Assembly: GCA_965222115.1 (NCBI GenBank)
Contig: CBDCTJ010000007.1
Location: forward strand, 992,001-1,056,000
DNA: 64,000 nucleotides
Direction of reading: 5' to 3'
From: Planctomycetota bacterium
GTDB taxonomy: Bacteria; Planctomycetota; PLA2; JAEUHO01
In this document: positions 10,584 through 44,393 of the stretch, piece by piece
Layout of the letters: every line of letters begins with the position of its first letter
Numbering within the stretch: the first letter of the stretch is position 1
The notes under the pieces: generated by a model
Seen by the model: the letters and a program-made list of their open reading frames with translations, nothing else
The model's database searches: none
Told to the model about the DNA's origin: nothing
Made by a program: the position numbers and the translations under genes

Positions 10584-10601
10584 TGGGTGGTCGGGATATA
10601 C

Positions 10602-10667
10602 CGGTTCATCTCAAACCTGCTAGTCGAACGTCACCAAGCTGGTGGGAAGAAACGCGGCACGGTACTC
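10602..10667 (-). repeat. Truncated third copy of the long element's head (contains the 38-bp site S at 10630-10667)
   Basis: GTCACCAAGCTGGTGGGAAGAAACGCGGCACGGTACTC matches the reverse complement of 11195-11232 (29/38) and 43667-43704 (28/38). Similarity to 43640-43666 continues leftward. Confidence 0.75.
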
Positions 10668-10682
10668 TATTCCTGTCGAATC

Positions 10683-11075
10683 TCAGGAATTCGGCTCATC
10701 TAGCCCGTTGGCCAGGACACTTGCCGCTGCTACATCAATTGCGCCAGCGTCGTCGAAGTACAGAATATAGTGGCGCAGCAAGGTGGGCAGTTGTGTACGC
10801 GTATCAAGTAGGCTGTCTCGTGAACTCAATATCATTTGCAACCAGTCCGAATCATCACTTACTTTCAACGACTCGGCAGGTGAGACGTGGCGTACTTCCC
10901 AGCAACTCGAATCCCAGTAGCTAATTGCGACTGTGCCGCTAAATCGCACGTGAGCCCATACAACACTCCCGTCATCATTTTCGTAATCATATTCAATGAC
11001 AACATCTGGACCACTCATCCGGATTTTAGGACCATCGACGGTTCGATTGGTCGGCACAAGGAGTTTTAGTTCCAC
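10683..11075 (-). CDS. Small acidic orphan protein, AT-richer than its flanks (possibly immunity-protein-like)
   Basis: GGAGG-N6-GTG start at 11075; C-terminal LRHYILYFDDAGAIDVAA. Function is inference only. Confidence 0.7.
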   Translation of the reverse strand: MELKLLVPTNRTVDGPKIRMSGPDVVIEYDYENDDGSVVWAHVRFSGTVAISYWDSSCWEVRHVSPAESLKVSDDSDWLQMILSSRDSLLDTRTQLPTLLRHYILYFDDAGAIDVAAASVLANGLDEPNS

Positions 11076-11194
11076 TAATTGCCTCCGCCTCGAATTCTTG
11101 GTACAGACCAGCGCGACTCCCACTTTCGCGCAAGCGCGTAGTCAACTGCGCTCGAACCGAGCGAAACCGGTTTCATTTCTTATCATAATACAAC

Positions 11195-11712
11195 GAATAC
11201 AATGCCGGGTATCTTCCCGCCAAGTTAGTGACTTTGAATTGGAACCCTTGCGAACGCCGTCAACGTAGAAGCGAAGGAGCGAACTCGCTTGCGTAATTCA
11301 GCAATCAGGTCGCACGAATCGCGTGTTGTCCATTGCGAACGGAATTGCGTTGCGGATGACTCCTTACGAACGCAACAGACATATTCGACTCCACCGCCCT
11401 GTCAGGGCAGCAACTATGGGGGTGAGTTACCTGACTCGGGGTTCTGCGCCGCTACGCTGGCGCGCCACCCCGGGGCTGTGTCCGTGGCTCCTACGGGGCC
11501 GTTGACGATTTCGCGTAACGCAACCGGCGAAGACATTGATTCTTTTCGCGAGATTCGCCAAGAGTCGAACCGATTGAGAGTCGTTCGGCGCATTCGCAGT
11601 TCGCATTCAGCGTCGCTAGCGCTTCTTTGCGCGGTCCTTCAACAAGCACCTACTGACTTGACCAAGTGCGTTCACCTCACGGCTGCGCTTGGTGTCCTTC
11701 GTGCCCTTTGTG
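11195..11712 (+). repeat. Long non-coding element, copy 1, 5' part (up to the intron insertion)
   Basis: Aligns almost gap-free to the reverse complement of 43224-43704; 122/156 identities in the block starting at 11221 (hand count). Confidence 0.9.
11396..11500. repeat. REP-like three-hairpin module inside the long element
   Basis: GCCCTgtcAGGGC, CTCGGGGT...ACCCCGGG and GGCTCCtacGGGGCC; same layout as 25637-25756 (reverse) and 43437-43500. Confidence 0.7.
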
Positions 11713-13636
11713 GTGCGTCAGGATAAGCCGATGGAGATCAGAGAATGAAAGAGTCTTACGGCGAAGAGCTAGCCACTCACGCCGGCCTCGTGTCTTGCGT
11801 GGGCGCTCGTAAGGGCGCGCTGCGAAGCGTAGACAGAGGGGAGGTAGGCCCGGTATTGAGCCGCGAAACCACGATGAAATTCCAGGAGGCCGACACGATC
11901 ACCAACGTGAGAAGGCAACACGGCTGGGTGCGTCCTTGGCGAGCGTCCAGTTGCTCCTGCGCGGTCTTAGATCCGGTGCATGCCCCAATAGATTTCCATA
12001 CGGAACCTGAGAGAGCCTACGTTTGGCCCGCCTTTGGCAACGGGTCCGCGTCGGGAACCTCGATGAGGTCACGCCGACGATGAACGAACGCAGGCAGTCG
12101 GACAAACCCGTAGTACCGAAGAAGCGACCGAACAAGGGTCGGGATGCGTCCCGGTCTGCGGAGGACGTGAAGGGAAGGGGTTTGGCCAAGGGGAACTCGA
12201 TCCGACGAAGCAGAACCCGTGCGCAGATACGGAATGTTCTGAACCAGAAGATGGATCGGGTACGGCAAGTTGCTGTGGAACGAAAAGATGAGAAGTTCAC
12301 TACGCTCTGGCATCACGTGTACTCCGTGGATCGGCTTCGAGAGGCGTACTTCAGCCTCAAGCGCAAAGGCGCAGCCGGCGTTGATGGGGTTACGTGGGAG
12401 GCCTACGGCAAGAACCTTGAGAATAATCTCGTGGACTTGTCCGATCGCCTCAAGCGCGGCGCGTACCGAGCGCCTCCGGTGCGACGTGTGTACATCCCGA
12501 AAGCCGATGGACGGCAGCGTCCACTCGGTGTGCCTGCGATTGAGGACCGCGTGGTCCAACGCGCAGCTTCGGAGGTGATTGGCACGGTGTACGAGGAGGA
12601 ATTTCTCGGGTTCAGCTACGGCTTCCGCCCCGGGCGCAGCCAGCACAACGCGCTGGACGCCCTATGCGTGGGAATCGAGCGCAAGAAGGTGAACTGGGTG
12701 CTTGATGCAGACATTCGTGGGTTTTTCGATGCCATCGACCATGAGTGGCTAATGAAGTTCATCTCGCACCGGATTGCGGACAAACGTGTGCATCGCTTTA
12801 TCAAGAAGTGGTTGCACGCGGGCGTTATGGAAGATGGCGTGCGCAGGCCGACGAAGGTCGGCACCCCGCAAGGGGGCGGCATTAGTCCGCTGCTTGCCAA
12901 CGTGTACCTGCACTACGCCTTTGATCTGTGGGCCCACCAGTGGCGGCGGCGCCATGCGCGCGATGACATCATCATCGTGCGCTACGCTGACGACTTTGTG
13001 GTGGGATTCAAGTACAAGAACGAGGCTGAGCGATTCCTACGGGAACTCCGCGAACGCCTCAACACGTTCAAGCTGGAACTGCATCCCGACAAGACGCGTC
13101 TGATTGAGTTTGGCCGCTTTGCAGCGGTAAACCGAGCGGAACGCGGTGAAGGGAAGCCGCCCACATTCAAGTTTCTGGGCTTTACGCACATATGCGCAAC
13201 TACCCGGAAAGGCCGTTTCAAGGTTGTACGCAGAACGCGTGCGGATCGACTGGTAGCCACGCTACGAGCCATCCGTGATGCGCTCCGAAAACGACTCCAC
13301 TGGAAACCCGTACGTGTGGCTAAATGGCTCGCGTCTGTTATGCGGGGCTGGCTGAACTATCATGCCATCCCCGATAACGGCACAGCGCTCCAGCTCTTTC
13401 GGAGGCGGCTCCTGCGCATCTGGCGCAACCACCTACGGCGGCGTAGCCAACGCTCACGGTGTTCCTGGTGTCGCATGTATGCCTTGGAAAAACGCTACTT
13501 CCCAAGCCTTCGCATCCGTCACAAACGTCCCTACATGAACTTGCGCGTCATTACCTAAGGCAGGAGCCCGGTGCGGGAAATCCGCACGCCGGGATCTGTG
13601 CGGGGGGCTCCGGGAAACCGGAGTCCCTACCGCGAC
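11713..13636 (+). mobile_element. Group II intron (IIB-type, bacterial class E-like, no endonuclease domain)
   Basis: 5' GTGCG at 11713; domain V GAGCCCGGTGCGGGAAATCCGCACGCCGGGATC at 13564-13596; domain VI with bulged A, ending CGCGAC at 13636. Boundaries are confirmed by the intron-free element copy at 43223/43224. Class assignment is from recalled similarity. Confidence 0.95.
12080..13558 (+). CDS. ltrA: Group II intron reverse transcriptase/maturase
   Basis: AAGVDG, RRVYIPKADGRQRPLG, SYGFRPGRS, DADIRGFFD, GTPQGGGISPLLAN, YADD, FLGF, domain X (GWLNY). Start could be 12080 or 12251. Confidence 0.96.
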   Translation: MNERRQSDKPVVPKKRPNKGRDASRSAEDVKGRGLAKGNSIRRSRTRAQIRNVLNQKMDRVRQVAVERKDEKFTTLWHHVYSVDRLREAYFSLKRKGAAGVDGVTWEAYGKNLENNLVDLSDRLKRGAYRAPPVRRVYIPKADGRQRPLGVPAIEDRVVQRAASEVIGTVYEEEFLGFSYGFRPGRSQHNALDALCVGIERKKVNWVLDADIRGFFDAIDHEWLMKFISHRIADKRVHRFIKKWLHAGVMEDGVRRPTKVGTPQGGGISPLLANVYLHYAFDLWAHQWRRRHARDDIIIVRYADDFVVGFKYKNEAERFLRELRERLNTFKLELHPDKTRLIEFGRFAAVNRAERGEGKPPTFKFLGFTHICATTRKGRFKVVRRTRADRLVATLRAIRDALRKRLHWKPVRVAKWLASVMRGWLNYHAIPDNGTALQLFRRRLLRIWRNHLRRRSQRSRCSWCRMYALEKRYFPSLRIRHKRPYMNLRVIT

Positions 13637-13740
13637 AGAGTCCTCTTCTTCAACAGCGTTCCTATACGGCGCGCGTTCGCTCCCGCCAATCGGCGCTCCC
13701 CCACGCTTGCGCTTCGTTTCTTAGTTTCTTCGTGTGATCC
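13637..13740 (+). repeat. Long non-coding element, copy 1, 3' part (after the intron)
   Basis: AGAGTCCTCTTCTTCAAC...CGCTCCCGCCAA...CCCCCACGCTTGCGCTTCG...GATCC matches the reverse complement of 43132-43223. Confidence 0.9.
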
Positions 13741-13793
13741 ATCTTGAAACGAGCTGCTTACACACACCACCACTCTCCCCGAACCGCTTCCAT

Positions 13794-13854
13794 CAACGCT
13801 TGCGCCCTGCGCCTCCGCGCTCGTTGCGCCCCTGCGTGAGGTGAGGTCCGTCCG
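13794..13854 (+). repeat. 61-bp cap repeat, copy A
   Basis: CAACGCTTGCG...CTGCGTGAGGTGAGGT.CGTCCG, also at 44315-44375 in the same orientation. Confidence 0.85.
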
Positions 13855-13918
13855 ACGAGCACCTAATTGACCACACTCCACGAAACGTGTGATTCTTGTC
13901 CCGATACCGTATGGCGCG

Positions 13919-15265
13919 TTACGGAAACAACCCCCGCTCCGCGTACGCATCGGCGACGCGCTTGACAGCTACGGCCATAGCGGCGTCGCGCGGAGTGGCG
14001 CCGTACTTCTTGCGAGCCGCGGAGACGCGATCGTAGGCGTCGGTAATGCGACGCTTGAGCTTATGGCGCACTTCGTCGATATACCACGTCTCGCCGCGAC
14101 GGTTTTGTGTCCACTCGAAGAACGAGACGATCACACCACCCGAGTTGCAGAGGATGTCGGGAATGATGTCGATGCCCTTGTCGAGCAAGGTGGCCTCGGC
14201 CGATGAGGTGAGCGGGCCATTGGCCGCTTCGGCGATGAGTTTGCAGTCGAGGTCGTCGGCGTTTTCGTCGGTGACTTGCCACTCAAGTGCGCCGGGAATG
14301 ATGATGTCGGCTTTCACGCGCCAGAAGTCGGCTTTGTCGATGGCCTCGGCGTTTTCAAATCCCGCGACGCCGCCCGTCTTCTCCACGTGTTCGGCCAACG
14401 CGAACGCATCGATGCCGCTTGAGGCATAAACGCTTCCGGTGTGATCTTGTGCCGCAAGCATTTTGGATCCATGCTCGCGTTCAAGTATGCGCGCCGCCCA
14501 TGACCCCACGTTGCCGTAGCCCTGTACGGTGAACGTGGCTTCAGAGAGGTCCATGTCGTTTTCCATGGCCCACGCCGCAATGTTGTAGACCGTGCCGCGA
14601 CCGGTGGCTTCTTCGCGACCCAATGATCCGCCGGCGGCAATCGATTTGCCGGTTACTACGTGACGTTGCACGTTCTTGTGGGCGTAACCAATGCTGTTGA
14701 TGTAGGTGTCCATCATCCAGACCATGGTTTGCGCGTCGGTGCCCATGTCGGGCGCGGGAATGTCATAGTCCGGGCCGATGTTATTGCCGAGCGCGTGACA
14801 GAAGCGGCGTGTGAGACGCTCCAATTCGTTGCGCGTGAGTTTGGTCGGATCAATCTGCACACCACCCTTGGCACCGCCAAAGGGAAGATCGACCAGCGAA
14901 CACTTCCAGGTCATCCACGCGGCGAGCGCTTTCACTTCATCGAGATGGACGTGGGGACTAAAGCGCAAACCGCCCTTGTAGCAACCGAGCATATTGTTGT
15001 GCTGAATGCGATAGCCTTTGCACAGCAGCACCTGCCCGGTCTTGTCGCGGCGCAGCGGGAAATTGACGATGAGTTCGTTTTGCGGCTGGCTGAGGATGCC
15101 GCGCGTGCCCGCGTCGAGGTCGATGATGTCGGCCGCGCGGTTGAATTGCGCCACCGCCATTTGGTAGAGATTATCAAACTCATCGACTTTGATGCGTTTG
15201 GGGTTCTTGGTCGCGGGGCGGACGCTGTCATCGTGGGACGCGGAGTTCACGTGGGTGGAGGTCAC
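13919..15265 (-). CDS. gdhA: Glu/Leu/Phe/Val dehydrogenase (glutamate dehydrogenase)
   Basis: YKGGLRF, LPFGGAKGG, DIPAPDMGT, VTGK...GGSLGREEATGRG, QGYGNVG, EAANGP. Confidence 0.93.
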   Translation of the reverse strand: MTSTHVNSASHDDSVRPATKNPKRIKVDEFDNLYQMAVAQFNRAADIIDLDAGTRGILSQPQNELIVNFPLRRDKTGQVLLCKGYRIQHNNMLGCYKGGLRFSPHVHLDEVKALAAWMTWKCSLVDLPFGGAKGGVQIDPTKLTRNELERLTRRFCHALGNNIGPDYDIPAPDMGTDAQTMVWMMDTYINSIGYAHKNVQRHVVTGKSIAAGGSLGREEATGRGTVYNIAAWAMENDMDLSEATFTVQGYGNVGSWAARILEREHGSKMLAAQDHTGSVYASSGIDAFALAEHVEKTGGVAGFENAEAIDKADFWRVKADIIIPGALEWQVTDENADDLDCKLIAEAANGPLTSSAEATLLDKGIDIIPDILCNSGGVIVSFFEWTQNRRGETWYIDEVRHKLKRRITDAYDRVSAARKKYGATPRDAAMAVAVKRVADAYAERGLFP

Positions 15266-15505
15266 GGCGGATTCCTAGGACCAAAGGGGGTCGAACCGGG
15301 GGCTGCCAATCACGGGCGAGGCGACTATCCCTTGATCGGTGCCCTTTGGCAAAGGCCTTTGTGGGCGGCGCCGATTTAGAATTCTGCGGGCAGACACCGT
15401 TCCGTCACGAAAGTGCAAGGGCAAAGCGTGGCTGCCAGCGAGACCCTTGCGACACTGGATCGGGTAGCGGTCGATTCGGGCGCCGCGAACGCGCCCCTCG
15501 CCCGG

Positions 15506-15853
15506 ATGTCGGTGAAGCGCGTGGAGGCACGATTGACCAAATTGTTGATTCAAGACGCGGGGCTTACGCACATCGTAGATCTTCGGCCCAAGGAGACGCT
15601 CGTCGTTGGACGTTCGTTTGATTGTGGGTTTCAAGTCCGCAGCGAGGGCGCGTCGCGGCGTCACGTGATTTTGCGACCTGATGGAGACGGGCACTCGGTG
15701 GAAGACGCGGGATCTACCAATGGCACGCTGCTCAATGCCGCCCCGCTCACGGGCTCGCGACCGATCAAGGCTGGCGACGTGGTGACCCTCGGTGCGTGCA
15801 CGATCCAGGTGTTCGACGATCCGCCTCGACTCGCCGCCGAGCAGGCCGGCTAA
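15506..15853 (+). CDS. FHA domain protein
   Basis: VGR...SRRH...DAGSTNGT; start uncertain. Confidence 0.88.
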   Translation: MSVKRVEARLTKLLIQDAGLTHIVDLRPKETLVVGRSFDCGFQVRSEGASRRHVILRPDGDGHSVEDAGSTNGTLLNAAPLTGSRPIKAGDVVTLGACTIQVFDDPPRLAAEQAG

Positions 15854-15868
15854 GGGCCAAGGACAACC

Positions 15869-17107
15869 GTGCCGCTTTCGTTTCGCCGCGAAGACGCGCT
15901 GCGCTCACGGGCGTTGGTAGCCGCAATGCCGTACACAATCGGTGCGAGTGTTGACTGTGACTTGTGCATTCCGCGTTTGATCTCACCTCCCACGGCTTCC
16001 GACGAATCGGCCTATGCCAAGCTAAGTTCGAAACGAGGTGAGTTCGTACTCTCAGCGGTGGGCGACCACGCGCTACTCGTCAACGGCGAGCGCATCCCGT
16101 TTATTCCCTTGCGAGACGGCGACACACTCACCGTCGAGCTTATCGATGCCAACTCGCCACGTGAGGGCACGGTGCCTACGCCGTTTCGATTTCATAACTT
16201 TATGCCCGGCGCATTCGTGCAGCCGGGAGTGTCGCTGGCCTCGGCGTGGTGCGCGCATGAAGGTTCGCAGGACGACCGATTTGGTCCCATGCGGTATCTC
16301 AAGGAAAGCGCGTTAAATGCTACCACGATCGCGTCAGGCACAACCCTGGCGAACGACCAACTGATCAAAGTGAGTCGCCCGTATCGCGACATGGACCACG
16401 CGCAGGCTCAATTGGCGCTGCTTGCAGCCATCAGCGGTAGCGAGCATCCTGGCTTGGTGCCGTTCATTGATGGCGGACTGTTTCGGCAAGAGGATCGCGT
16501 CCATAGTTTCCTTGTTACGAAGTATGTCGCGGGTCAAACGGCCGGTGAATTGATGCAGCGTGCCGCAAGTGCTACTCACGGTGAGCGGGCGCGAATGCTC
16601 TATGGCGTGGTGGGCGCCGCGAAGGGTCTGCGCCATCTCCATCGACGCGGCATCCTTCATCGCGACGTGTCGCCTGGCAATGTCATTGTGCGCAGCGATG
16701 GAGAAGGTTTCTTGATCGATTACGATCAGGCCGTCCTCATGCGCCAGGTGTCCTCATCCAGCGACGCGATTGTGGGGACCCCCGGGTTTATTGCGCCGGA
16801 AGTCGTCACCGAAGGCTCTGCGGCCATCAGCGCCGAGAGTGATATCTATGCGCTTGTTGCGGTGATCTATGCGATGTGTACGGGTTCCGCGCCGGTGGAC
16901 GGCGAGAATCCATTGGCAGCGGTATCTCGAAGCGTGAGACCACCGCCCCGTCCGAGTGAACTTGGGGTACGACTTACCACAACGTTGGAAGATCTATTGA
17001 TGGCGGGCCTCTCGGCGAAACCGAACGATCGTCCACATGCGCGCGACGTCATTGACACGTTGGAACGCGCGGTTCGTCGTCTATTGATCGAATCAGAGCG
17101 GTCATGA
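15869..17107 (+). CDS. Degenerate FHA-like domain plus Ser/Thr protein kinase
   Basis: HRDVSPGN, LIDYD, GTPGFIAPE, SDIYAL; N-terminal beta-rich FHA-like region (LLVNGERI...LRDGD). Confidence 0.85.
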   Translation: MPLSFRREDALRSRALVAAMPYTIGASVDCDLCIPRLISPPTASDESAYAKLSSKRGEFVLSAVGDHALLVNGERIPFIPLRDGDTLTVELIDANSPREGTVPTPFRFHNFMPGAFVQPGVSLASAWCAHEGSQDDRFGPMRYLKESALNATTIASGTTLANDQLIKVSRPYRDMDHAQAQLALLAAISGSEHPGLVPFIDGGLFRQEDRVHSFLVTKYVAGQTAGELMQRAASATHGERARMLYGVVGAAKGLRHLHRRGILHRDVSPGNVIVRSDGEGFLIDYDQAVLMRQVSSSSDAIVGTPGFIAPEVVTEGSAAISAESDIYALVAVIYAMCTGSAPVDGENPLAAVSRSVRPPPRPSELGVRLTTTLEDLLMAGLSAKPNDRPHARDVIDTLERAVRRLLIESERS

Positions 17108-18309
17108 CGAGACAGCCGCGTCGTCGAGCATCCTCGGGTCAGGGTCGCGTGGTGTTGCGTGGAGGCCCTCCCGCACATCCGCTCGTGTTTTCTAAGCGCG
17201 TGGCGCATGTCGATCGGGATGTGACCAGTGGCGACGTTGCGCTCGTGTGTACGCGCGAAGGGGAACCCATTGGGCATGGTTTTTATCACGCCTCGTCTCA
17301 GATTGCGGTGCGCATGCTATCGCGCGACATGCGCGTGCGCCCCGACCCGGCGTGGCTGCGGGCGAAACTTCAGCGCGCTCACGAGCTGCGCACCGAACTT
17401 CTAAGTCTTCCCGCCGTCACCGACGCGTGGCGCGCTGTGCATGCGGAAGCTGATGGGCTGTCGGGGCTCGTTGTGGATCGATACGGCGACGTGGCGGTTG
17501 CATCGCTATTCAGTTTGGGTTGGTTTCGGCGATTCGATGACGTTGTGGCGGCTCTAAAAGAAGTGCTCGGCGTGAAGGATGTGTACATGCGCGTGGATCC
17601 GCGCACCGAGCAACACGAAGGCTTTCAAGCCGTCGATCAGCGTGCGCCAAAACCGTTTCTTGTTCGCGAACATGGCCTTTCGTTCATGGTGGATGTGCTC
17701 GGTGGGCACAAGACCGGCTACTTTCTCGACCAACGTGACAATCGCAGGCGCATTCATGATTTGGCGAAGGGTCGCCGTGTATTTGACGGCATGACCTATA
17801 CCGGCGGATTTGCACTTGCCGCCGCGCAAGGCGGTGCAGAGTCGGTAGAAGGGATGGACCTCGACGAGAAGGCGATTGCAGTTGCCAAGAAAAACGCCGA
17901 CGCAAACAAGTTGAAGGCCACCTTCGTACATGGCGACGTCTTTCATCGTCTGCGCGACTTTGCTGGGCGCCCAAACAACGAGCGCCCCGATTTGCTCATT
18001 GTGGACCCCGCCAAATGGGCCAAGAACCGCAACGCGCTCCCCGCGGCACGCAGTCGCTACTTTGATTTGAACCGGTTGGCGTTTCGTGCCGTGCGCACCG
18101 GTGGTCTGGTGTTTACGCACTCGTGCAGCGGACTCCTATCGGAAGAGGACTTCCTTCAGATCCTTCGCAACGCTTCCCTCGACGCCAACCGCAATGTGAA
18201 CATTCTCAGCATCTCCGGCGCCGCGCCCGACCACCCCGTCTCCTTGCGCACGCCCGAGACGCGCTATCTGAAATCGGTGTTGTGTGTTGTTGAACGATCG
18301 TCCGAATGA
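17104..18309 (+). CDS. rlmI: 23S rRNA m5C1962 methyltransferase (RlmI family)
   Basis: PUA-like N-terminus, EADGLSGLVVDRY, GHKTGYFLDQRDNR, YTGGF, DP, SCS, PDHP...YLK. Confidence 0.9.
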   Translation: MTRQPRRRASSGQGRVVLRGGPPAHPLVFSKRVAHVDRDVTSGDVALVCTREGEPIGHGFYHASSQIAVRMLSRDMRVRPDPAWLRAKLQRAHELRTELLSLPAVTDAWRAVHAEADGLSGLVVDRYGDVAVASLFSLGWFRRFDDVVAALKEVLGVKDVYMRVDPRTEQHEGFQAVDQRAPKPFLVREHGLSFMVDVLGGHKTGYFLDQRDNRRRIHDLAKGRRVFDGMTYTGGFALAAAQGGAESVEGMDLDEKAIAVAKKNADANKLKATFVHGDVFHRLRDFAGRPNNERPDLLIVDPAKWAKNRNALPAARSRYFDLNRLAFRAVRTGGLVFTHSCSGLLSEEDFLQILRNASLDANRNVNILSISGAAPDHPVSLRTPETRYLKSVLCVVERSSE

Positions 18310-18376
18310 TGATGCGACTTCCCGTTAGGCGCCGCGCGCGTTTGGTGTGTCATGGGGCCAGTGCAACAATGCGCAC

Positions 18377-21076
18377 GTGACGACTTCACACCATCGACTG
18401 TTTGAGCCTGTCGTTTTGTTGGATGGCAGCAGTGCCCTGTGGCGGATTGCTACCCGCGACGATGGGCGCGATCTCGCGACATTTTTCGTAGTGCTTCAGG
18501 AAGAGGCAGGGGACACGCCGACCTGCTTTCCTCGCTGGATAAAGGAAGACGTCGACGCGGCATCGCGCGTGATAACTCACATCATCGCGAAAGGGGTGGC
18601 GGGGGAGCAGGAAGTGATCGCCGCAGGTGCCTGGCGTGTCGCGAGCGCAGATGAGGCGGAAATCACGCTCGCCGTGCACCCTGAGTTTCGCGGGCGAGGG
18701 CTTGCGCGCGTTTTGCTGCCGCGCTTGGCGCGAGACGCTGCATTCCAAGGAATTCGCCAGCTTGTCGCGGTGACGGATCGCAACAACGTTCCACTGATTC
18801 AGTTGCTGCGCGACAGCGGCTATGCCGTGGACGTGACTCTTGATGGGAATGGCGCTCCGGACGAAAGCGACGTGCGCATTGCGCTCGATGTGGCACCGGA
18901 CGACGAGGGCCGCGCCATGGCCGCGCTGCGCAAGCAAGTGGCGACTACCGCGTCGTTGCAGCCCCTCCTTCGCCCGTCGAGCGTTGCGGTCGTTGGCGCG
19001 TCTCGGGATCGGTCAAGCATCGGCTATCGCATCTTGGATGCGCTTGTGCACTGCGGGTTTCATGGGCCGGTGTATGCCGTGAACCCGAGTACGCCGGTGG
19101 TGGGATCGTTTCCAACGGTTCCCTCGCTGCGGGACCTGCCTCAGCCTGTCGACTTGGCAGTAGTCGTAGTGCCAGCGCGACACGTTTCGTCCGTGGTGAA
19201 GGACGCCGCCGCCTCAGGCGTGCGTGGACTCGTTGTGATCACCGCGGGCTTTGCCGAAGTGGGCCCTGATGGTCATAGGGCCCAGATGGAGCTTATGCAC
19301 TACGTGCGCGGACACGGGATGCGCATGATTGGCCCCAACTGCATGGGTCTGCTCAACACCGATCCCGCGATCTCAATGAATGCGTCGTTTTCGCCGGTGT
19401 TCCCGCCGCAGGGTTCGGTCGCGATGCTCTCGCAGAGTGGTGCGCTGGGTCTCGCCATTTTGACGTTCGCGTCCACGCTCGGTGTGGGGCTCTCATCGTT
19501 CGTGAGCATTGGCAATAAGGCCGACGTGTCGAGCAACGATTTGCTTGAGTATTGGGAAGCCGATCCAGCCACCGACGTCATTTTGCTCTACTTGGAATCG
19601 TTTGGAAATCCGCGACGCTTTGCACCCATTGCGCGCCGTGTGTCGCGTACGAAACCGATTGTGGCCGTGAAGGGCGGGCGTTCGGTGGCAGGTGAACGTG
19701 CGGCTGGGTCACACACCGCGGCGCTTGTGGGTGCCGACGTTGCGGTCGATGCACTCTTTCGGCAGGCGGGTGTGATTCGTGTGGACACGCTAGAAGAGAT
19801 GTTTCACGTTGGGTTGTTGCTTAGCAATCAGCCGTTGCCCCTTGGACGACGTGTCGGTGTTATCACCAACGCAGGCGGCCCGGCTATTTTGGCGGCGGAT
19901 GCGCTTGCGGCGTGGGGATTGGATGTTCCCGAGCTATCCGATGCGATGCAGTCCAAGTTGGCGGCGTTTCTTCCCCCCGAAGCCAGCACAAAGAACCCGG
20001 TGGACATGATTGCGTCGGCCACGCCCGATGCGTTTCGTCAGGCGGCGGCGTTGCTCTTGGCAACGGAAGAGATCGACGCGCTGATCGTGATCGACATTCC
20101 ACTCGACGCCTCGGGATGGGAAGCCATTGAACCGGAGCTGTTGCGCGGCATCGATGCCGGGCGTGCGGCCTCCCCGATCGCCAAGCCCGTGCTGGCCTAT
20201 GTCATGAGTGGCGGCGGATCTTCGCAGCCGCGACTCATTGCTGGCAACATTCCCGCGTTTCCCTTTCCGGAGTCGGCCGCCAAGGCGTTGGGCCATGCGG
20301 TGTCCTATGCAGAGTGGCGTCGTCGTCCCCTCAGTGCGCCGGATGAGACAACGTCGTTTGATGCCGCATCCATACGCGCATGGTGTCAGTCGTGGCTGGA
20401 ACGCTACGGCGACGGATGGCTACCGCTTGACGCGGCGTTTGCGCTGTTGGCGTTGGCCGGACTCCCCATTGCGACCGGCGCCCGTGCAACAACAGCGGAC
20501 GAAGCGGAGCAGGCCGCACGCTCCATGCCGTCGTGCGTTGCGATGAAAGCAATTTCACCTGGTGCCCTCCATAAGAGTGACGAGGGTGGCGTACAGCTAA
20601 GACTTGAGACAACAGAAGAGGTCCGGCGCGCGTTCACCGAAATGCAGCGGGCGTATCCAGATTTAGAATCCGTGTGGATTCAGCCCATGGTGGATGACGC
20701 GCTTGAAGTACTTGTGGGCATGACGGAAGACCACGTCTTTGGTCCGCTCATCGCGTTCGGATTGGGCGGCATCCACGTTGAGGCGCTCGGTGATGTCGCG
20801 TTTCGCATAACGCCGCTCGAAGTTACCGATGCCCAAGCCATGTTGAAGGACATTCGCGCGCACGCGCTGCTCGAAGGGCATCGCGGTCGTCCGCCTGTGG
20901 ATCGAGAAGCCTTGGTGACGGTGTTGCTCAGCGTGGCGCGTTTGGTAGAAGACGTGCCGGCGATTGCGGAGATGGATCTCAATCCGGTGATGGCCTTGCC
21001 TCAGGGCTGCATTGTCGTGGACGCCCGCATACGCCTAGCCACGCCACAGGTCGGCCGTTCCCCCGCGCGCTTGTAG
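18377..21076 (+). CDS. GNAT acetyltransferase fused to NDP-forming acyl-CoA synthetase (Pat/Pka-like, GNAT N-terminal)
   Basis: VHPEFRGRGLA, VAVVGAS, GPNCMG, SQSGA, GNKADV, AAGSHT, NPVD, HKSDEGGV, DLNP. Start uncertain. Confidence 0.9.
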   Translation: MTTSHHRLFEPVVLLDGSSALWRIATRDDGRDLATFFVVLQEEAGDTPTCFPRWIKEDVDAASRVITHIIAKGVAGEQEVIAAGAWRVASADEAEITLAVHPEFRGRGLARVLLPRLARDAAFQGIRQLVAVTDRNNVPLIQLLRDSGYAVDVTLDGNGAPDESDVRIALDVAPDDEGRAMAALRKQVATTASLQPLLRPSSVAVVGASRDRSSIGYRILDALVHCGFHGPVYAVNPSTPVVGSFPTVPSLRDLPQPVDLAVVVVPARHVSSVVKDAAASGVRGLVVITAGFAEVGPDGHRAQMELMHYVRGHGMRMIGPNCMGLLNTDPAISMNASFSPVFPPQGSVAMLSQSGALGLAILTFASTLGVGLSSFVSIGNKADVSSNDLLEYWEADPATDVILLYLESFGNPRRFAPIARRVSRTKPIVAVKGGRSVAGERAAGSHTAALVGADVAVDALFRQAGVIRVDTLEEMFHVGLLLSNQPLPLGRRVGVITNAGGPAILAADALAAWGLDVPELSDAMQSKLAAFLPPEASTKNPVDMIASATPDAFRQAAALLLATEEIDALIVIDIPLDASGWEAIEPELLRGIDAGRAASPIAKPVLAYVMSGGGSSQPRLIAGNIPAFPFPESAAKALGHAVSYAEWRRRPLSAPDETTSFDAASIRAWCQSWLERYGDGWLPLDAAFALLALAGLPIATGARATTADEAEQAARSMPSCVAMKAISPGALHKSDEGGVQLRLETTEEVRRAFTEMQRAYPDLESVWIQPMVDDALEVLVGMTEDHVFGPLIAFGLGGIHVEALGDVAFRITPLEVTDAQAMLKDIRAHALLEGHRGRPPVDREALVTVLLSVARLVEDVPAIAEMDLNPVMALPQGCIVVDARIRLATPQVGRSPARL

Positions 21077-21085
21077 GCGCCCGTG

Positions 21086-22750: not shown

Positions 22751-22922
22751 TCCGTTTCCTTTCGAGGAGGGCGACCAGCGAAAGTGTAGCCGTGACCGAG
22801 CAGCATGGGCGTTTGGGTTCGATCCGGAGGCGGAAAGTGAGGACGCCGTTGACGATGCCTATGAAATCTGTATAGCTGGGGCTGTGACGGGCGCAACGCG
22901 CGCGTTGCGTGGAGGTTGGTCG

Positions 22923-24002: not shown

Positions 24003-24100
24003 GCTCGATTCGAATGGGTATCGCTAGCAATAGGTGAGTGCAGCGAGGGTGGGGCTGGTTTTGCAACAGGCGAGATTGAAGAACCCGTCTTGTGGACTTG

Positions 24101-25360: not shown

Positions 25361-25465
25361 AGAGCTTCGTATACCACCGCCATGAACCCCGTGCGTCATG
25401 CGCGGGCTGTGTTTGGGGAAGTTGTTGGGGTGATCCGCAACCTTGCGTTCTTTTTGGGGGAATCC

Positions 25466-25756
25466 TATTACCAGGGTTCGGAAGCCTCACCCTTCGCTAT
25501 CAACTTCCATGCCTTCGGCATGGTCTTGAGTTTCCAATACGTGTGGCGGTTCGAAGAAGAGCCATCCTTCCCGGCGAAGCATGCGTTGATAGTCAGTGCT
25601 CGGCCATGCACGCGTTCTTCGTGTAGACATGCCCTGGTCCCGAAGGGACACACGCTGATAGCCCCGGGGGGCTCGAGTTGAAGTAGATTCGAGAGCGCAG
25701 CGAGATGAAACCCTGGGTCTAAGCATGGAGTAAAGGATTGCGCCCTGCAAGGGTGC
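25466..25756. repeat. Inverted pair of REP-like hairpin modules
   Basis: CCAGGGT...ACCCT and CCATGCCttcGGCATGG (25507-25523), facing GTCCCgaaGGGAC (25637-25649), CCCCGGGG...ACCCTGGG and GCGCCCTgcaAGGGTGC (25740-25756). Confidence 0.7.
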
Positions 25757-25796
25757 GATCGGGCCGTCCCATCGCCGCGTTGAAATCTTGTTCCCG

Positions 25797-25825
25797 TTAC
25801 CAAAACCCACTTCGCGCGTTATAGT
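25797..25825 (+). promoter_or_regulatory. Putative sigma70 promoter of the Uma2 gene
   Basis: TTACCA-N17-TATAGT directly before ATG codons at 25829, 25835 and 25844. Confidence 0.45.
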
Positions 25826-25828
25826 GGT

Positions 25829-26344: not shown

Positions 26345-26412
26345 TCGCTAGCAGCCAGGGAAGCAGTCCTTTTCAACGCCAGTAGAAGATCGCGACACGG
26401 TAGACTCAGCTC

Positions 26413-28044: not shown

Positions 28045-28153
28045 TCGCGCGACAGCGACGGTACGCTCGAGAACACCCGACTCCTAGCTGGCCCCATCGC
28101 CTTCCGTGGTGGATCCTGCCACCCGAACGCGTCAACATTCGCTAGGAGTCGTC

Positions 28154-39768: not shown

Positions 39769-39787
39769 TGGCCCCGGGCTACGCATC

Positions 39788-41662
39788 ATGAGTTTTCCAA
39801 TCCGCGACGCGCGACGGCTTTACGGCATCGATTCATGGGGCAACGGCTACTTTGGTGTCAATGCCAAGGGGCGTCTCACCGTCCATCCCATGCGCGCAAC
39901 GCATCGCGTTGATTTGTTGGAATTGATGAACTCGCTCAAGCGAAAGAAGCTCCGCTTTCCCGTGCTGCTTCGCTTTCCGCAGATTCTGGAAGACCGGGTC
40001 AAGCAGATCGCAGACGCATTTTCGGCGGCGTCCGTGGAGTTTGAGTACGACGCGGGCTATCAGGGCGTGTTTCCAATCAAAGTCAACCAACACGGAGACG
40101 TCGTGGATGCGTTGGCCCGAGCAGGCAAGAACCACAAGCTTGGGCTTGAGGCCGGCAGCAAGGCGGAGCTTCTGATCGCGCTCACGCATGATCTCGCACC
40201 TGATGCGCTCATCGTGTGCAACGGCTACAAAGATGCCGACTACATCGAGTTGGCCCTGCGCGCGCAGGCGCTTGGGCGACGAATTGTTTTGATCATTGAA
40301 AAGCCGCAGGAATTGCCGCGCATCTTGCGGGTGGCCAAGAAACTCAAGGTCACGCCCACGCTTGGCATTCGCGTGCGACTTCACGCCAAGTCGTCGGGCA
40401 AGTGGGAAGGGTCCAGCGGGAGTGCCGCCAAGTTTGGGCTCACCACCAGTGAGTTGTTGGATGCCGTACACGCACTCAAGGAAGCCAAACTACTTGATGT
40501 ATTCGAGATGCTCCACTTTCATGTGGGCAGTCAGATTACCGAAATCCGACGCATCAAAAAGGCCGTGCGTGAGGGTGCGCGGGTCTACGCCAAGCTGCGC
40601 GCCGAAGGCTGTCCGTTGCGTTACCTCGATGTGGGCGGTGGGTTGGGCGTGGACTACGACGGAAGCAACTCGTCCTACGAAGCTAGCATTAACTACACCA
40701 TTCCCGAGTACGCCAACGGCGTTGTGTATGCGGTCAAAGAAATCTGCGACGCCGAAGAGGTGCCGGTGCCCATTCTCGTGTCGGAATCGGGGCGTGCGCT
40801 TACGGCCTATCACGCGCTGTTGGTGACGGAAGCCCGCGGGCGCAATGTGTCGCAGCCGCCTCAAGACTTGGCGATTGGCTCAAACCCCCATGATGCCGTT
40901 CGCGAGCTGATTGAGATCTTTGATGGCATTACTCGTAAGAACCACCGCGAGTACTTCCACGACGCCGAAGAGATGCGTGATCAGGTGGAGCGGTTGTTTG
41001 ACCTAGGACTGTTGTCACTACGCGAACGCGCCTACTGCGAGCAGTTGATTCGCGAAATCGGATTAGCGGCGTTTGCCTATGCCAAGAGTGAGCGCGTATT
41101 GCCGGAAGAGTTTCAGCGCGTCAAGCGACGCCTTGTTGCCAAATACATCCTGAACTTCAGCGTGTTTCAGTCGGCTCCCGACAGTTGGGCGCTCGATCAG
41201 CTCTTTCCGATTCTCCCCATTCATCGCCTCAATGAACGACCCACCGTGGCCGCGACGCTTTGCGACGTGACGTGTGATAGCGACGGCGAGATCGATCGCT
41301 TCGTCGACGTGCGCGATGTGAGCGAGAGCCTGCCCTTGCATCCGCTCAAACCCGATGAACCGTACTACCTCGCGATCTGTTTGCTTGGTGCCTACCAAGA
41401 CGTGCTCGGTGACTACCACAACCTCTTTGGGCGCGTAGACGAGGCGCAGATCAAGGTCAACAAGAACGGTGCGACGCGCGTCACGAAAACCATCACGGGC
41501 GATCGCAACCGCGACGTGTTGGCGCTATTTGGTCACGACCCCGATGACATGCTTGAGCGCATTGCAGAGCGTGCAGTCGAGCTACCGAAAGACGAAGCGA
41601 AGAAGCTTGTTGATCACGCGGCGCATGTGTTGGGGCAGTACACGTATTTGGGGCGGGACTAA
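39788..41662 (+). CDS. speA: Biosynthetic arginine decarboxylase
   Basis: WGNGYF, PIKVNQ, GLEAGSK, CNGYKD, HFHVGSQI, GGGLGVDYDG, ESGRA, DVTCDSDG, GAYQ. Confidence 0.97.
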   Translation: MSFPIRDARRLYGIDSWGNGYFGVNAKGRLTVHPMRATHRVDLLELMNSLKRKKLRFPVLLRFPQILEDRVKQIADAFSAASVEFEYDAGYQGVFPIKVNQHGDVVDALARAGKNHKLGLEAGSKAELLIALTHDLAPDALIVCNGYKDADYIELALRAQALGRRIVLIIEKPQELPRILRVAKKLKVTPTLGIRVRLHAKSSGKWEGSSGSAAKFGLTTSELLDAVHALKEAKLLDVFEMLHFHVGSQITEIRRIKKAVREGARVYAKLRAEGCPLRYLDVGGGLGVDYDGSNSSYEASINYTIPEYANGVVYAVKEICDAEEVPVPILVSESGRALTAYHALLVTEARGRNVSQPPQDLAIGSNPHDAVRELIEIFDGITRKNHREYFHDAEEMRDQVERLFDLGLLSLRERAYCEQLIREIGLAAFAYAKSERVLPEEFQRVKRRLVAKYILNFSVFQSAPDSWALDQLFPILPIHRLNERPTVAATLCDVTCDSDGEIDRFVDVRDVSESLPLHPLKPDEPYYLAICLLGAYQDVLGDYHNLFGRVDEAQIKVNKNGATRVTKTITGDRNRDVLALFGHDPDDMLERIAERAVELPKDEAKKLVDHAAHVLGQYTYLGRD

Positions 41663-41754
41663 GGCAGCCATGCGGGCTTGATCAACTGCTTTGGTGAGCG
41701 TAGGCTCACAGCGATTCGACCGCATGAGTACCTTCTAGCGTCAGAGGATGAGGC

Positions 41755-43116
41755 ATGAATTCACGTGCAGCGTTGTTGTTGGGCCTACTGTTGACGAGCG
41801 TGTCGAGCGCAACTACGACCATGACGGCAGCAGCCAAGAAGGCAGACGGTACGACTGCCGCGGACTATGAACGGGCGATCGATGAAGCCCTGGACACCAA
41901 GAATGTTGAGCTGATCTTGGCATCGCTCGGTGAAGACGCCTTGAACATCCTCGCGAAGGACGCGAAGAGGGTCTTATCGATCACGAGTACCGTTCAGTAC
42001 CGAATGAAGATGATTGCTGAGCTGGCAGGGAAGGACAAGCAGGAGCAGGTAAGCAAGCTATGCGCGTGGATGGTCGCGCTGGCGACATCGGCGCGAACTC
42101 GAGCGCCTAAGGATGAACGCGTGCATGCAGCGATGGCGAATGCCGCTGATGCCACCATTCGCGCGGCGATTGTGTTTCGTGGGGAGCAAGAAGTCGAGGC
42201 CTACCGACGCGTTGCGAGGCATTGGCGCGACGCGGTGCGACGAGGTGGCCGTAAGTCAGCAGAGTACTTTCGAGAGTCAATCTATGCACTCCGCGATTCG
42301 ACCGTAGGGACGACGACGCCCGCGCTTGAACACTATGCCGCGCTGTACGCAACGCTTCTTGCTTCCCTAAAGCAGAACTCTTCGCGAGATCTCAAAATCG
42401 AAGCAGGTCAGGTGGCTGCCATCTACACCAGTCGACTTATTGAAAAGAAAAAGAAGGCAGACGCTCGCAAGATCGTGAAGGAAGCCCTGGCCACCATCGA
42501 GTCGATTCGAGATCGATCGTCCAACGACTACCCATGTGCATCGATGGTGTACAATGCACTGCTCATCAATGGGTATGCAGCTGGTCTAAAGAAGATCGGT
42601 GAGTTTCGATGCGAGAAGAAGAAGGGGCGTTGGAGTCGATTGTCATTTGATCTGCCCTTGGGTTGGCGACTCGCCTACGGCAGCGATTCCAACGGACAAG
42701 ATCTCAATACGATTACTGGTTATGGCGTGCGAGCGCTCACTCGGATCGAGTTTTACCGCTATCGCCGTCACATTGAATACACCCATTCGAATGGCTCCGG
42801 CGTAGGTGGAGACAACCCGACCGGGCTCGCGGATCGTGATCGAGAGGGATTGCGCGGCGGGCTCGGTAAGATCACGCGCGAGCGCAAGCGCGTCTCAGGT
42901 GTTTTGAACAAGACCGTCCGTAAGTCGGTGGGCTACGAGTTAGCGGGCGAGCGATCGGGGCGACCGCGATGGTATCGCTCGTGGTACTTCCGCGGTACAG
43001 TGAAGCGTGACACCTATCTGGTGGCGGTGAGTAAGTCCAATGGATTGGTTCGAATGGATGCAGCGTTGGAGCACGTTCTTGATTCGATTCGAGAAATGCC
43101 TCCCAAGAAAGAGTAG
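41755..43116 (+). CDS. Secreted orphan protein
   Basis: GAGG RBS, signal peptide, 453-aa ORF with no recognisable motif. Confidence 0.75.
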   Translation: MNSRAALLLGLLLTSVSSATTTMTAAAKKADGTTAADYERAIDEALDTKNVELILASLGEDALNILAKDAKRVLSITSTVQYRMKMIAELAGKDKQEQVSKLCAWMVALATSARTRAPKDERVHAAMANAADATIRAAIVFRGEQEVEAYRRVARHWRDAVRRGGRKSAEYFRESIYALRDSTVGTTTPALEHYAALYATLLASLKQNSSRDLKIEAGQVAAIYTSRLIEKKKKADARKIVKEALATIESIRDRSSNDYPCASMVYNALLINGYAAGLKKIGEFRCEKKKGRWSRLSFDLPLGWRLAYGSDSNGQDLNTITGYGVRALTRIEFYRYRRHIEYTHSNGSGVGGDNPTGLADRDREGLRGGLGKITRERKRVSGVLNKTVRKSVGYELAGERSGRPRWYRSWYFRGTVKRDTYLVAVSKSNGLVRMDAALEHVLDSIREMPPKKE

Positions 43117-43131
43117 ATAGACCCAGACTCC

Positions 43132-43704
43132 GGATCTCCGCGAAGCAACTAAGGAGCGAAGCGCAAGCGTGGGGGGCGTCGTTTGGCGGGAGCGTAAGGA
43201 ACGCGGTTGAAGAAGAACGCTCTCACTAAGGGTACGAAGGACACCAAGCGCAACCGTGAGATGAACGTATTTGGTCAAGTCAGTGAGCGCTGGTTGCAGG
43301 ACGGTGTTTAGAACGCGCAAGCGGCGCTGAGTGCGAACTGCGAATACGTGGAACGGCTCTCAATCGATTCGACCCGTGGTGGACGTCACAAGGAAGATCA
43401 TTGTCCTCGTCGTAAGCGCAACACAAGACTGTCAACGGCCTCGTAGGGGCCACGCATCACCCCGGGTCAAGTAGCCCCATAGTTACCGCCCTGACGGAGG
43501 GTGCGGAGTTGTGCGAAACTTCGTTGCGTCCGTTAAGAGTCATGCGCAACGCCCTTTCGTTCGCAATGAACAATACGCGATTCATGCGACCTGATCGCTG
43601 AACCACGCGAGCAAGTTCGCGCCACCGCTCCTGCATTTACGGCTCTTCCAATCGGCTGAGTCCAAAGTCACTAACTTGTTGGGGAAAAGCGAGGCACGGT
43701 ATCC
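43132..43704 (-). repeat. Long non-coding element, copy 2 (intron-free)
   Basis: Reverse complement aligns to 11195-11712 joined to 13637-13740; the empty intron site is between 43224 and 43223. Confidence 0.9.
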
Positions 43705-43748
43705 CGTATCCGAGTGTCTTCTCCGTCTAAAGGAAAAGACAACAGCGT

Positions 43749-44174
43749 TCACTTAAACTCATCGCGTCCCACCTCCGAACTGCCCTTCATGAATCGAAGA
43801 TGAACGACGTGACCCTCGACAAGTACTACGAGCCACTTGCTCGATCCCAGCCAGCGAAATTCAACTTTGTCATCGATTTTCTTGGCCCATGCTCTCTGCG
43901 ACTCCGTTCCAGTCGTCCTCCCTCGCAAGTCCCCGTCGAACCGATAAGCCAACGCTGACTCCGACAGCCCCACCAACTGATTCTGAATGCCAGGATCGAC
44001 TTGCATTATGCGATAGGCGTTGGATGGCGGAGACCCAAGAACACCCGCCTTCCACAGTACGTACTTGGGCTCCAGCGGGTGGTCGGTTCCACCGAACACT
44101 ATCCACCAGCCGCAGGCCACCAATAGGGAGACTATACCCACGGCCCGGACCCATCGCACGCGATTCGATCGCAT
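43749..44174 (-). CDS. Small membrane-anchored or secreted orphan protein
   Basis: GAGGTG-N6-ATG at 44174; N-terminal hydrophobic helix. Confidence 0.65.
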   Translation of the reverse strand: MRSNRVRWVRAVGIVSLLVACGWWIVFGGTDHPLEPKYVLWKAGVLGSPPSNAYRIMQVDPGIQNQLVGLSESALAYRFDGDLRGRTTGTESQRAWAKKIDDKVEFRWLGSSKWLVVLVEGHVVHLRFMKGSSEVGRDEFK

Positions 44175-44232
44175 CGGGAACACCTCGTACGGCCGATCCT
44201 ACAGCCCACGCCCAATTCCGCTAGTCATCGAT

Positions 44233-44263
44233 CCTTGTGTTCTTCGTGAGAGCATTCTTCTTC
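44233..44263 (+). repeat. Third copy of the junction (intron target) motif
   Basis: CCTTGTGTTCTTCGTG|AGAGCATTCTTCTTC compared with CCTTCGTACCCTTAGTG|AGAGCGTTCTTCTTC (copy 2). Confidence 0.7.
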
Positions 44264-44314
44264 CTAGACGCGCACCACAACCAATCACACACGCACTCAC
44301 CAAACAACGTTCCC

Positions 44315-44375
44315 CAACGCTTGCGACTCAGCGCCCCTGCAACTTGGCGTCTCTGCGTGAGGTGAGGTGCGTCCG
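44315..44375 (+). repeat. 61-bp cap repeat, copy B
   Basis: Matches 13794-13854, including the identical CTGCGTGAGGTGAGGT. Confidence 0.85.
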
Positions 44376-44393
44376 GCTTTAGGATCTAATCGC

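Follow-up and report, generated by a model that had tools for sequence, protein, structure and literature searches.

What do two gaps between converging genes represent when both are filled with unrelated open reading frames (ORFs) and with the same non-coding modules? The question is raised by a 64,000-nt window of a Planctomycetota bacterium genome (contig C7, positions 992001–1056000; a 4.55-Mb assembly of 7 contigs, labelled G000 when it is compared with other genomes), in which island 1 occupies the gap 10584–13918 and island 2 the gap 41663–44393. A preliminary description, made from the letters of the window, had interpreted the islands as a gene-capture or cassette platform built from four shared modules: a ~600-nt element, a head site (S), a junction motif and a cap. 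The analysis presented here points to a different origin. The islands are probably a mosaic of decayed, lineage-specific, non-coding repeat families lodged in permissive convergent junctions, resembling repetitive extragenic palindromes (REPs), bacterial interspersed mosaic elements (BIMEs) and TIRtrons, with at least two of the families derived from the ends of Y1 transposases.

A network of inverted and direct repeats joins the two islands. The repeat finder aligned 11197–11376 with 43523–43702 (180 nt, 76% identity), 11483–11622 with 43315–43454 (140 nt, 75%) and 11623–11712 with 43224–43313 (90 nt, 82%), and a shorter inverted repeat, I4, pairs 13698–13732 with 43141–43175 (35 nt, 91%), while 13826–13854 matches 44347–44375 in direct orientation. 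The inverted repeats belong to an element of ~600 nt that runs on the plus strand in island 1 and on the minus strand in island 2, and the direct repeat lies in the cap, which is on the plus strand in both. Thus, the common element and its flipping relative to the cap, both put forward in the preliminary description, are confirmed. With the intron that interrupts the first copy excised, the alignment of the two copies of the element has 624 columns, of which 442 are identical (70.8%) and 63 contain gaps. The left part of copy 1 (11197–11712, plus strand), delineated by the inverted repeats against 43224–43702 and by the module census, comprises the S head, modules A and A2, the core module, modules D and D2 and the 5′ exon of the intron; the right part (13637–13792, plus strand), which contains one arm of I4, comprises the 3′ exon, a CT-rich G module and an H module. 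Copy 2 (43135–43703, minus strand) is intron-free and its core module is decayed.

The 38-nt S motif occurs in both islands, as had been described, in three copies with 29/39, 29/39 and 30/40 identical positions. A solo copy (10625–10664, plus strand, nhmmer E 2e-09) is located 41 nt past the stop codon of the gene bordering island 1 on the left, with unique sequence on its left flank. The second (11197–11236, minus strand) forms the head of element copy 1, and together these two inverted copies surround the ORF at 10683–11123 on the minus strand; the third (43663–43703, plus strand, E 7e-09) forms the head of element copy 2. The cap, or I module, composed of short tandem CT-rich 8-mers, is found on the plus strand at 13793–13856 and at 44315–44378 (repeat family D5 of the repeat finder), with 50 of 64 positions identical (78%). 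Its reported location beside a stop codon holds for island 2, where 15 nt separate it from the end of ribBA. It does not hold for island 1, where a 63-nt module, J (13856–13918, plus strand), formed by a hairpin followed by a T-rich tail, intervenes between the cap and the gdh stop codon, which J abuts. The junction motif of island 2 (44225–44300, plus strand) combines a CT-rich module of E/F-G type with an H-like stretch and has a BLAST coverage of 5–9 copies. As a partner of 13700–13745 it is weak (24/35 identical), and the claim that both islands carry it stands in the sense that both contain members of a multi-copy CT-rich family.

In the CT-rich modules (13700–13740, 11682–11712, 13793–13850 and copies elsewhere in the genome), a conserved ACGCTTGCG-like lead is followed by a short tandem array of 8–9-mers, and in the copy at C7:~2182200 the 9-mer is expanded to five units. 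Stutters of a 7–12-nt unit are likewise present directly outside many S copies. A possible coding of Lys/Arg-rich peptides on the reverse strand of the CT-rich modules was rejected, as the copies differ by indels and by 8- and 9-nt tandem units. The by-eye reading of S as a promoter or terminator was similarly discarded: promoter and terminator scans showed no excess in the islands over shuffled sequence and picked out neither S nor J. Apart from the intron, Rfam returned nothing in the islands at E≤10 except one 16-bit chance match, and the modules therefore do not correspond to a described RNA family.

An iterative nhmmer census of the whole genome with 13 slices of island 1 resolved the modules into separate families. 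The slices gave 30 matches for S, 28 for A (mostly overlapping S), 36 for C, 22 for D, 48 for G, 62 for the cap and 44 for J, together with two each for A2 and D2, one each for B, F and H and none for E. These 277 matches are distributed over 105 loci, or 106 when the re-searched core module is added. One family stands alone in 61 of the 106 loci, two to six are combined in 45, and four or more in 12. A core module is found within 500 nt of S in 5/30 cases and a cap in 0/30, and the order and orientation of modules within clusters vary. Because A2 and D2 occur only in the two islands, the ~600-nt composite was copied only once. The census thus contradicts both a dedicated platform, since each main module is a genome-wide family of 22–62 copies, and a single linked set, since the families are mostly apart; the modules largely occur independently of each other, a pattern that the preliminary description had itself named as speaking against its proposal.

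The distribution of the families follows the direction of the neighbouring genes. In a crude gene map of greedy longest ORFs, modules occupy 8.6% of the convergent gaps (47/547), compared with 3.0% of the co-directional (54/1781) and 2.6% of the divergent ones (14/546), a ~3-fold enrichment of the convergent class, and ORFs of 150 amino acids (aa) or more contain 33 of 321 module matches. Two convergent gaps that share four modules would thus be expected from a mosaic of abundant repeats with a preference for gene 3′ ends. Searched for in the genome, the core motif of the cap has 39 occurrences and that of S has 21, against 0 and 1 for reversed control patterns, which exceeds chance. In 30 relatives of the same family or order the same motifs number 0–2 and 0–1 per genome, and in the other genomes that bear the core module the S and cap motifs are also at control level.

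The core module (slices B and C combined; 11382–11510, plus strand, in island 1) leads to a transposase. When the genome was searched again with the conserved middle of the element (11370–11520), 44 copies were recovered with nhmmer and 45 with a covariance model, R1, dispersed on four contigs with unrelated flanks. The copies measure 107–127 nt, and R1 spans 127 positions with 25 base pairs in five helices. In a structure test on 34 near-full copies, 88.1% of cells were paired, against 30–53% when the partners were slid, and 15 of the 25 pairs changed on both sides, against 7.5 ± 1.7 in shuffles, with 0 of 500 shuffles reaching the observed values; the structure was drawn by eye from the same sequences, which favours it in this test. 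The helices are recovered when two copies are folded independently as single strands (z −2.6 and −3.9). The copy of island 1 (R1, 92 bits) folds weakly (z −1.9), with the helices partly reproduced, and that of island 2, which carries a deletion and is missed by R1, folds no better than shuffled sequence (z +0.43). RNAalifold detected no structure on the plus strand of the hidden Markov model alignment of the core, and the bases before helix 1 vary among copies. Two more copies lie in the window outside the islands, one at 25432–25532 (plus strand, R1 E 1.5e-8, also matched by nhmmer) and the other inverted relative to it at 25626–25768 (minus strand, R1 E 7.2e-13).

A genome search with Pfam Y1_Tnp gave one strong match (84 bits), a gene at C7:1411598–1412047 that encodes a 150-aa TnpA. 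The protein scores 66.6 bits with NCBIfam transpos_IS200 (cut-off 55) and 20.4 with REP_Tyr_transpos (cut-off 80), and its motifs DHIH, WQ and YIEHQREHH identify it as the only Y1 protein of the subclass-1.2 type in the genome, encoded by a single-copy gene. Core modules at C7:1411447–1411573 (minus strand) and 1412199–1412311 (plus strand) flank the gene with their helix-1 ends facing it, and a third core module follows this flanking pair.

The same arrangement is observed in distant members of the phylum. Run over 61 genomes, R1 found the core module in six genomes of six other families, with 48, 29, 8, 4, 4 and 3 copies, and in 0 of 28 same-family and 0 of 11 same-order genomes. TnpA homologs at E≤1e-10 are present in G059, G042 (three), G051 (two) and G052 (two), and the motifs DHxH, WQxGY and YIxxQxxHH are invariant in 8/8 aligned homologs. 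With the filters of R1 off, the layout of a left module on the minus strand and a right module on the plus strand was seen at homologs of G042, G051 and G052, and one side of it in G059. Both flanks reach E<0.1 in 5 of 9 loci (G000, G042, G051 twice and G052) and at least one flank does so in 7 of 9, while the remaining loci comprise one with two weak flanks (E 0.3–0.5) and one without a flank. In G053, 38 of the 48 core matches form 19 abutting doublets of a minus-strand and a plus-strand copy, which is the layout of the TnpA locus minus the gene; the copies of G000 are mostly singlets or direct pairs, mostly fused to other modules. No paper naming the core module was found in a search that excluded supplementary tables, which might list it. 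That subclass-1.2 Y1 proteins own a large four-helix module similar to REPINs, amplified independently to 29–48 copies in distant planctomycetes, is more likely than a cassette mechanism in which Y1 (HUH) transposases could move module-ORF-module composites as single-strand units and so load orphan genes into convergent junctions, a mechanism that we regard as quite unlikely.

S leads to a second transposase. Similarity between S copies, which fall into several sub-families, extends to one side of the motif only, and S is therefore an end. Two inverted copies, S(−) at C1:601526–601566 and S(+) at C1:602162–602196, bound a 671-nt unit (C1:601526–602196), and a 91% identical copy of the unit lies 1.5 kb away. 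Within the unit lies an ORF of 152 aa, or 160 aa in the neighbouring copy, without a Pfam match of its own. Over 103 aa its product shares 47% identity (E 2e-26) with the N-terminus, which bears the HUH motif, of a 341-aa Y1 protein. The middle part bearing the Tyr motif is missing from the 152-aa product, and the ORF thus constitutes an internally deleted Y1 gene. On sequence grounds, S is assigned as the terminal inverted repeat of this 671-nt unit. HUH/Y1 genes, for which the preliminary description had suggested a search, are thus present in the genome, each flanked by core modules or S motifs in inverted orientation. This arrangement supports its proposal of non-coding, non-autonomous modules, on which enzymes encoded elsewhere probably act in trans. 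The accompanying claim that the platform is distinct from insertion sequence (IS) elements fails, because the modules are derivatives of transposase ends.

Additional Y1 genes and S-bearing units are found elsewhere in the genome. The gene of the 341-aa protein (C7:1066413–1067438; Pfam Y1_Tnp 33.6 bits, motifs HYH and YIHRNP) is located ~10.4 kb past the right end of the window. A short palindromic repeat flanks it in four upstream plus-strand and two downstream minus-strand copies; the 17-nt core of this repeat matches 49 times in the genome but never within the window, no S-like or other island module was found near the gene, and the ensemble looks like a classical REPtron. A fourth Y1-like gene (C7:306167–306952, ~300 aa, 27% identical to the 341-aa protein) is flanked at 305835–305986 and 307002–307165 by a different palindromic repeat with ~40 BLAST copies. 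In addition, a unit that starts with S and carries an ORF of 285–290 aa of no known family occurs in four copies (C5:86322–87400, C3:452900–453853, C1:269771–270600 and C1:67324–68100), with 80–90% nucleotide identity over 740–900 nt and two of the copies degraded. A small ORF preceding one of these units has a sub-threshold match to SUKH_5 (17.7 bits, cut-off 27).

The modules are themselves targets of other mobile elements. The intron reported to split the island 1 copy of the element was identified by Rfam as a group II intron of 1924 nt (11713–13636, plus strand; RF02005 at 11750–11974, 168 bits, and RF00029 at 13562–13636, 44.6 bits). Within 12023–13558 (plus strand) it contains the gene of a reverse transcriptase/maturase (TIGR04416, 383 bits), in which Pfam found no endonuclease domain. 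The genome holds three copies of the intron, 99.4–100% alike over 1896 nt, and all three interrupt the same position of the CT-rich module, while 14 further junction-like sites (≤6 substitutions in 28), including the look-alike of island 2, are unoccupied. The island intron thus displays the attributes of mobile group II introns, namely ribozyme domains, a reverse transcriptase/maturase and several copies at one target. Similarly, an ISL3 element present in five full copies of 1424–1442 nt, or its miniature derivatives, is inserted in or beside the A-tract of S four times.

Both islands are bordered by converging housekeeping genes, as the preliminary description had indicated, and Pfam identified all four. 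Island 1 lies between a pyruvate:ferredoxin oxidoreductase-like gene (PFOR; 5874–10583, plus strand; POR_N, POR and PFOR_II) and the glutamate dehydrogenase gene gdh (13919–15265, minus strand; ELFV_dehydrog, Glu/Leu/Phe/Val dehydrogenase). Island 2 lies between the arginine decarboxylase gene speA (39788–41662, plus strand; Orn_Arg_deC_N and Arg_decarb_HB) and ribBA (44394–45725, minus strand; DHBP_synthase and GTP_cyclohydro2). Since the left border runs on the plus strand and the right one on the minus strand in each case, both gaps are convergent. The ORFs that they enclose, ORF146 (10683–11123, minus strand, 146 aa, GC 0.51, between two outward-facing S copies), ORF453 (41755–43116, plus strand, 453 aa) and ORF144 (43749–44183, minus strand, 144 aa), have no Pfam or NCBIfam match, in agreement with their description as unrelated orphans. 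In a search of 300 other genomes of the phylum, homologs of ORF146 and ORF144 were absent, and ORF453 had distant ones (24–28% identity) in 7 of the 300, at other loci. These ORFs are best regarded as unrelated accessory or spurious genes, bystanders rather than cargo, residing in permissive gaps.

The sister-locus comparison proposed earlier was informative for one of the two islands. Among 11 relatives, the gap between speA and ribBA is short and empty (~30–190 nt) in five, against 2731 nt here, and ~0.9 kb long in two, while in four the genes are unlinked within 1.5 kb. Of the two longer gaps, that of G009 (L156:578–1504) contains ~0.9 kb that is repetitive in all frames, likely a tandem repeat, and that of G012 (L151:2781–3761) a 286-aa GNAT-like ORF. 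The C-terminus of PFOR was found within 1.5 kb of gdh in 0 of the 11, and island 1 thus offers no empty-site comparison because no relative keeps the linkage. The islands are variable junctions between converging genes.

Sequencing data agree with the assembled arrangement. Four runs (two samples of one study, possibly the source sample; no RNA run is listed) hold the region as Logan contigs at 2–5x depth. Contigs over 9800–29700 match the assembly, among them one covering 9914–11468 with 0 differences and others covering 11441–13592 and 10392–11739. A joint from 11708 to 13693 in X2 and X3 has a shorter side of 28 letters, may come from other repeat copies and is not taken as an allele lacking the intron. 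The contigs, which could not reveal an inversion or a circle, contained neither, and they do not support or refute mobility. The best match in a metagenome scan with gdh was 54–55% identical, which revealed no sister strain. Elsewhere in the assembly, contig C6 (48116 nt) has a GC content of 39.7%, against 55–59% in the other six contigs, and might represent foreign DNA, a plasmid or phage, or result from erroneous binning. The cumulative GC skew of C7 has its minimum at ~0.58 Mb and its maximum at ~2.76 Mb, and six overlapping copies of a 9-nt tandem unit (repeat finder family D1) are located at 4279–4349 of the window.

The assembly of the islands may be envisaged as follows. The core and S modules would have multiplied as hairpin elements in single-stranded form, non-autonomous and dependent on Y1 enzymes to cut and rejoin them in trans, and modules would survive mainly where insertion is harmless, that is at gene 3′ ends. 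A single copying event between the two gaps would then have placed one composite of ~570–620 nt in opposite orientation, the two copies having since diverged to ~71% identity. A group II intron may subsequently have homed into its multi-copy target site in the island 1 copy, and ISL3 elements would likewise target the A-tract of S.

This mosaic has to be weighed against a role of the modules in the host, against passive duplication and against gene capture. The location of the modules invites the idea that they are domesticated host elements kept at gene 3′ ends as terminators, insulators, mRNA-stabilising hairpins or protein-binding sites. The 3-fold enrichment in convergent gaps, the J hairpin and T-rich tail beside stop codons, the cap 15 nt from the end of ribBA and the compensatory changes that keep the core helices are all compatible with such a role, as are the functions of REPs in termination, mRNA stability and the binding of IHF or gyrase given as background in PMC6006769 and PMC3733652. 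The motifs, however, are not above control in the 30 same-family or same-order genomes, and therefore no conserved host function depends on the modules; moreover, the island copies are decayed, with the core of island 2 folding no better than shuffled sequence, and a simple terminator scan gave no island excess and did not single out J. A role in the host is thus unlikely. A transposase-free spread, solely through segmental duplication, gene conversion and rearrangement, would account for a composite copied once, with A2 and D2 restricted to the two islands, and is in line with the tandem 8–9-mers of E/F, G and I and the stutters beside S, which point to slippage. Such plain debris is very improbable in view of the 45 dispersed, structured 110-nt units with unrelated flanks on four contigs, the occurrence of the unit in six genomes of six other families while 0 of 39 same-family or same-order genomes have it, and its repeated presence in inverted copies around a Y1 gene.

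Gene capture, in which the modules would serve as recombination sites and a trans-acting Y1 enzyme or other recombinase would excise, invert or insert the small ORFs that they flank, would imply that accessory genes are shuffled among convergent junctions. It draws on ORF146 being bracketed by inverted S copies, on the low GC of genes adjoining S (0.49–0.57 in many cases) and on the differing content of the gap between speA and ribBA among relatives (empty, a GNAT-like ORF or tandem repeats). Yet no ORF was found twice with the same flanks: ORF146 and ORF144 are single-copy orphans, and the homologs of ORF453 are at unrelated loci. The two S motifs that bracket ORF146 point outward, opposite to the arrangement in the S-bounded Y1 unit, and a gene tail faces S in 22/30 cases where gap types alone predict ~64%. 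Most loci are ORF-free, with 61/106 holding one family and no ORF, and the families do not travel together, either within the genome or between genomes. None of the seven Phage_integrase matches in the genome is near the islands; on C7 there is none between 646 kb and 1625 kb, with the islands at ~1003 and 1035 kb, in keeping with the earlier remark that no integrase is visible. The contigs from two samples display the assembled arrangement only. The capture of genes was therefore not borne out, with no ORF recurring together with its flanks, and we consider it very unlikely.

Several observations weigh against an origin of the mosaic from Y1-driven repeats. An ORF is enclosed in 13 of the 106 loci, and at C7:2276–2284 kb three repeats of 290–355 nt, 86–88% identical, alternate with unrelated ORFs; both observations would also suit gene capture. 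Genomes G053, G057 and G047 carry the core module without a TnpA homolog at E≤1e-10, and any activity of TnpA on core modules is purely inferential, because PMC6006769 describes subclass 1.2 as devoid of IS properties and hairpins. Relative to replication, the core copies show a weak strand bias: for 21 of the 29 on C7 the modelled strand is the same replication-relative strand, and these copies are not independent. The Y1 gene associated with S is internally deleted in both copies, and these two S units, being adjacent duplicates, count as one independent locus. No intact cognate Y1 gene was found for S, tblastn giving only the fourth Y1-like gene, and modules D, G, I and J could not be linked to any enzyme. 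Transposition itself was not observed, and the collections searched contained no close strain in which filled and empty sites could be compared. Concerning the alternating repeats, those at C7:2276000–2284400 consist of a core module plus a J hairpin, the intervening ORFs encode 243 and 321 aa, and the stretch is a low-GC accessory one.

The mosaic of Y1-derived and other repeats has consequences for how such islands are viewed, even if none of these findings is categorically new. The tempting label of a new gene-capture platform is removed as unsupported, and the islands take their place in the known world of REPs, BIMEs and TIRtrons. The most useful new detail is the link of a subclass-1.2 TnpA to an amplified, covarying module in a layout conserved in five genomes of different planctomycete families, which gives the enigmatic subclass 1.2 a testable substrate. 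A single genome is found to contain at least four separate Y1 gene/repeat pairs, and mosaic repeats emerge as safe havens that a group II intron and an ISL3 element use as targets.

The core module and its TnpA share some traits with described Y1 systems and differ in others. Quentin et al. (2018, PMC6006769) define subclass 1.2 by DH[IV]H, WQ and YIKNQKEHH, a median length of 148 aa and a low copy number, and characterise it as lacking IS properties and associated hairpins. The TnpA described here is alike in its 150 aa, its matching motifs and its low copy number, and differs in the surroundings of its gene, which both here and in four further genomes of planctomycetes has an amplified, structured module in inverted orientation at its flanks. 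That work also describes REPtrons, BIMEs and, in Planctomycetes, a class 3 with atypical flanking structures, the Y motif of which differs from that of the 150-aa TnpA. As in REP/REPIN-RAYT systems and BIMEs, structured extragenic repeats are present in tens of copies, and as in REP/RAYT pairs inverted repeats flank a single-copy Y1 HUH gene (1 gene for 44–45 modules). The abutting inverted doublets of G053 are similar to REPINs, and the clusters of this genome resemble BIMEs in being mosaics with other motifs, of variable order and orientation and enriched at 3′ ends. The repeats also serve as IS targets, a property claimed for REPs in the title of PMC1525189 (for REP systems and BIMEs see also PMC3116915). 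In contrast to the 20–40-nt palindrome of REPs, the unit described here has 107–127 nt and four to five helices, and no GTAG or CGTC tag is invariant among the modules. In the enzyme, the signature is the YxxxQxxHH of subclass 1.2 (IS200-like) rather than the class-2 YxxxNP of RAYTs, and, unlike REPINs, the copies in this genome are for the most part single and joined to other modules.

Di Nocera et al. (2013, PMC3733652) described tyrosine-transposase genes with long inverted repeats that form moderately abundant families (TIRtrons), with many such gene/repeat pairs in the planctomycete R. baltica. The S-bounded unit and the core-flanked TnpA both fit this description of a TIRtron or TIRYT, with the differences that the gene of the S unit is internally deleted and that the core repeat is a multi-hairpin structure conserved across families of the phylum. 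IS200/IS605 elements proper have near-identical whole-element copies, subterminal hairpins on one strand and no inverted ends, whereas here a single gene copy is flanked by inverted modules. Integron cassettes and pdif modules share with the islands the presence of small unrelated ORFs separated by conserved non-coding sites without an enzyme in the array. The islands differ from integrons by the lack of an adjacent integrase and of attI (no dedicated attC model was run) and by the lack of a site accompanying each ORF in constant position and orientation, the modules being mostly ORF-free. Like group II introns known to home into repeated or mobile DNA, all intron copies of this genome occupy one position of a repeat module, the target being a CT-rich mosaic module instead of a terminator hairpin or an IS. 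Finally, with regard to miniature inverted-repeat transposable elements, which have target-site duplications besides terminal inverted repeats and derive from an autonomous element, the abutting core doublets have the layout of a TnpA unit from which the gene is absent.

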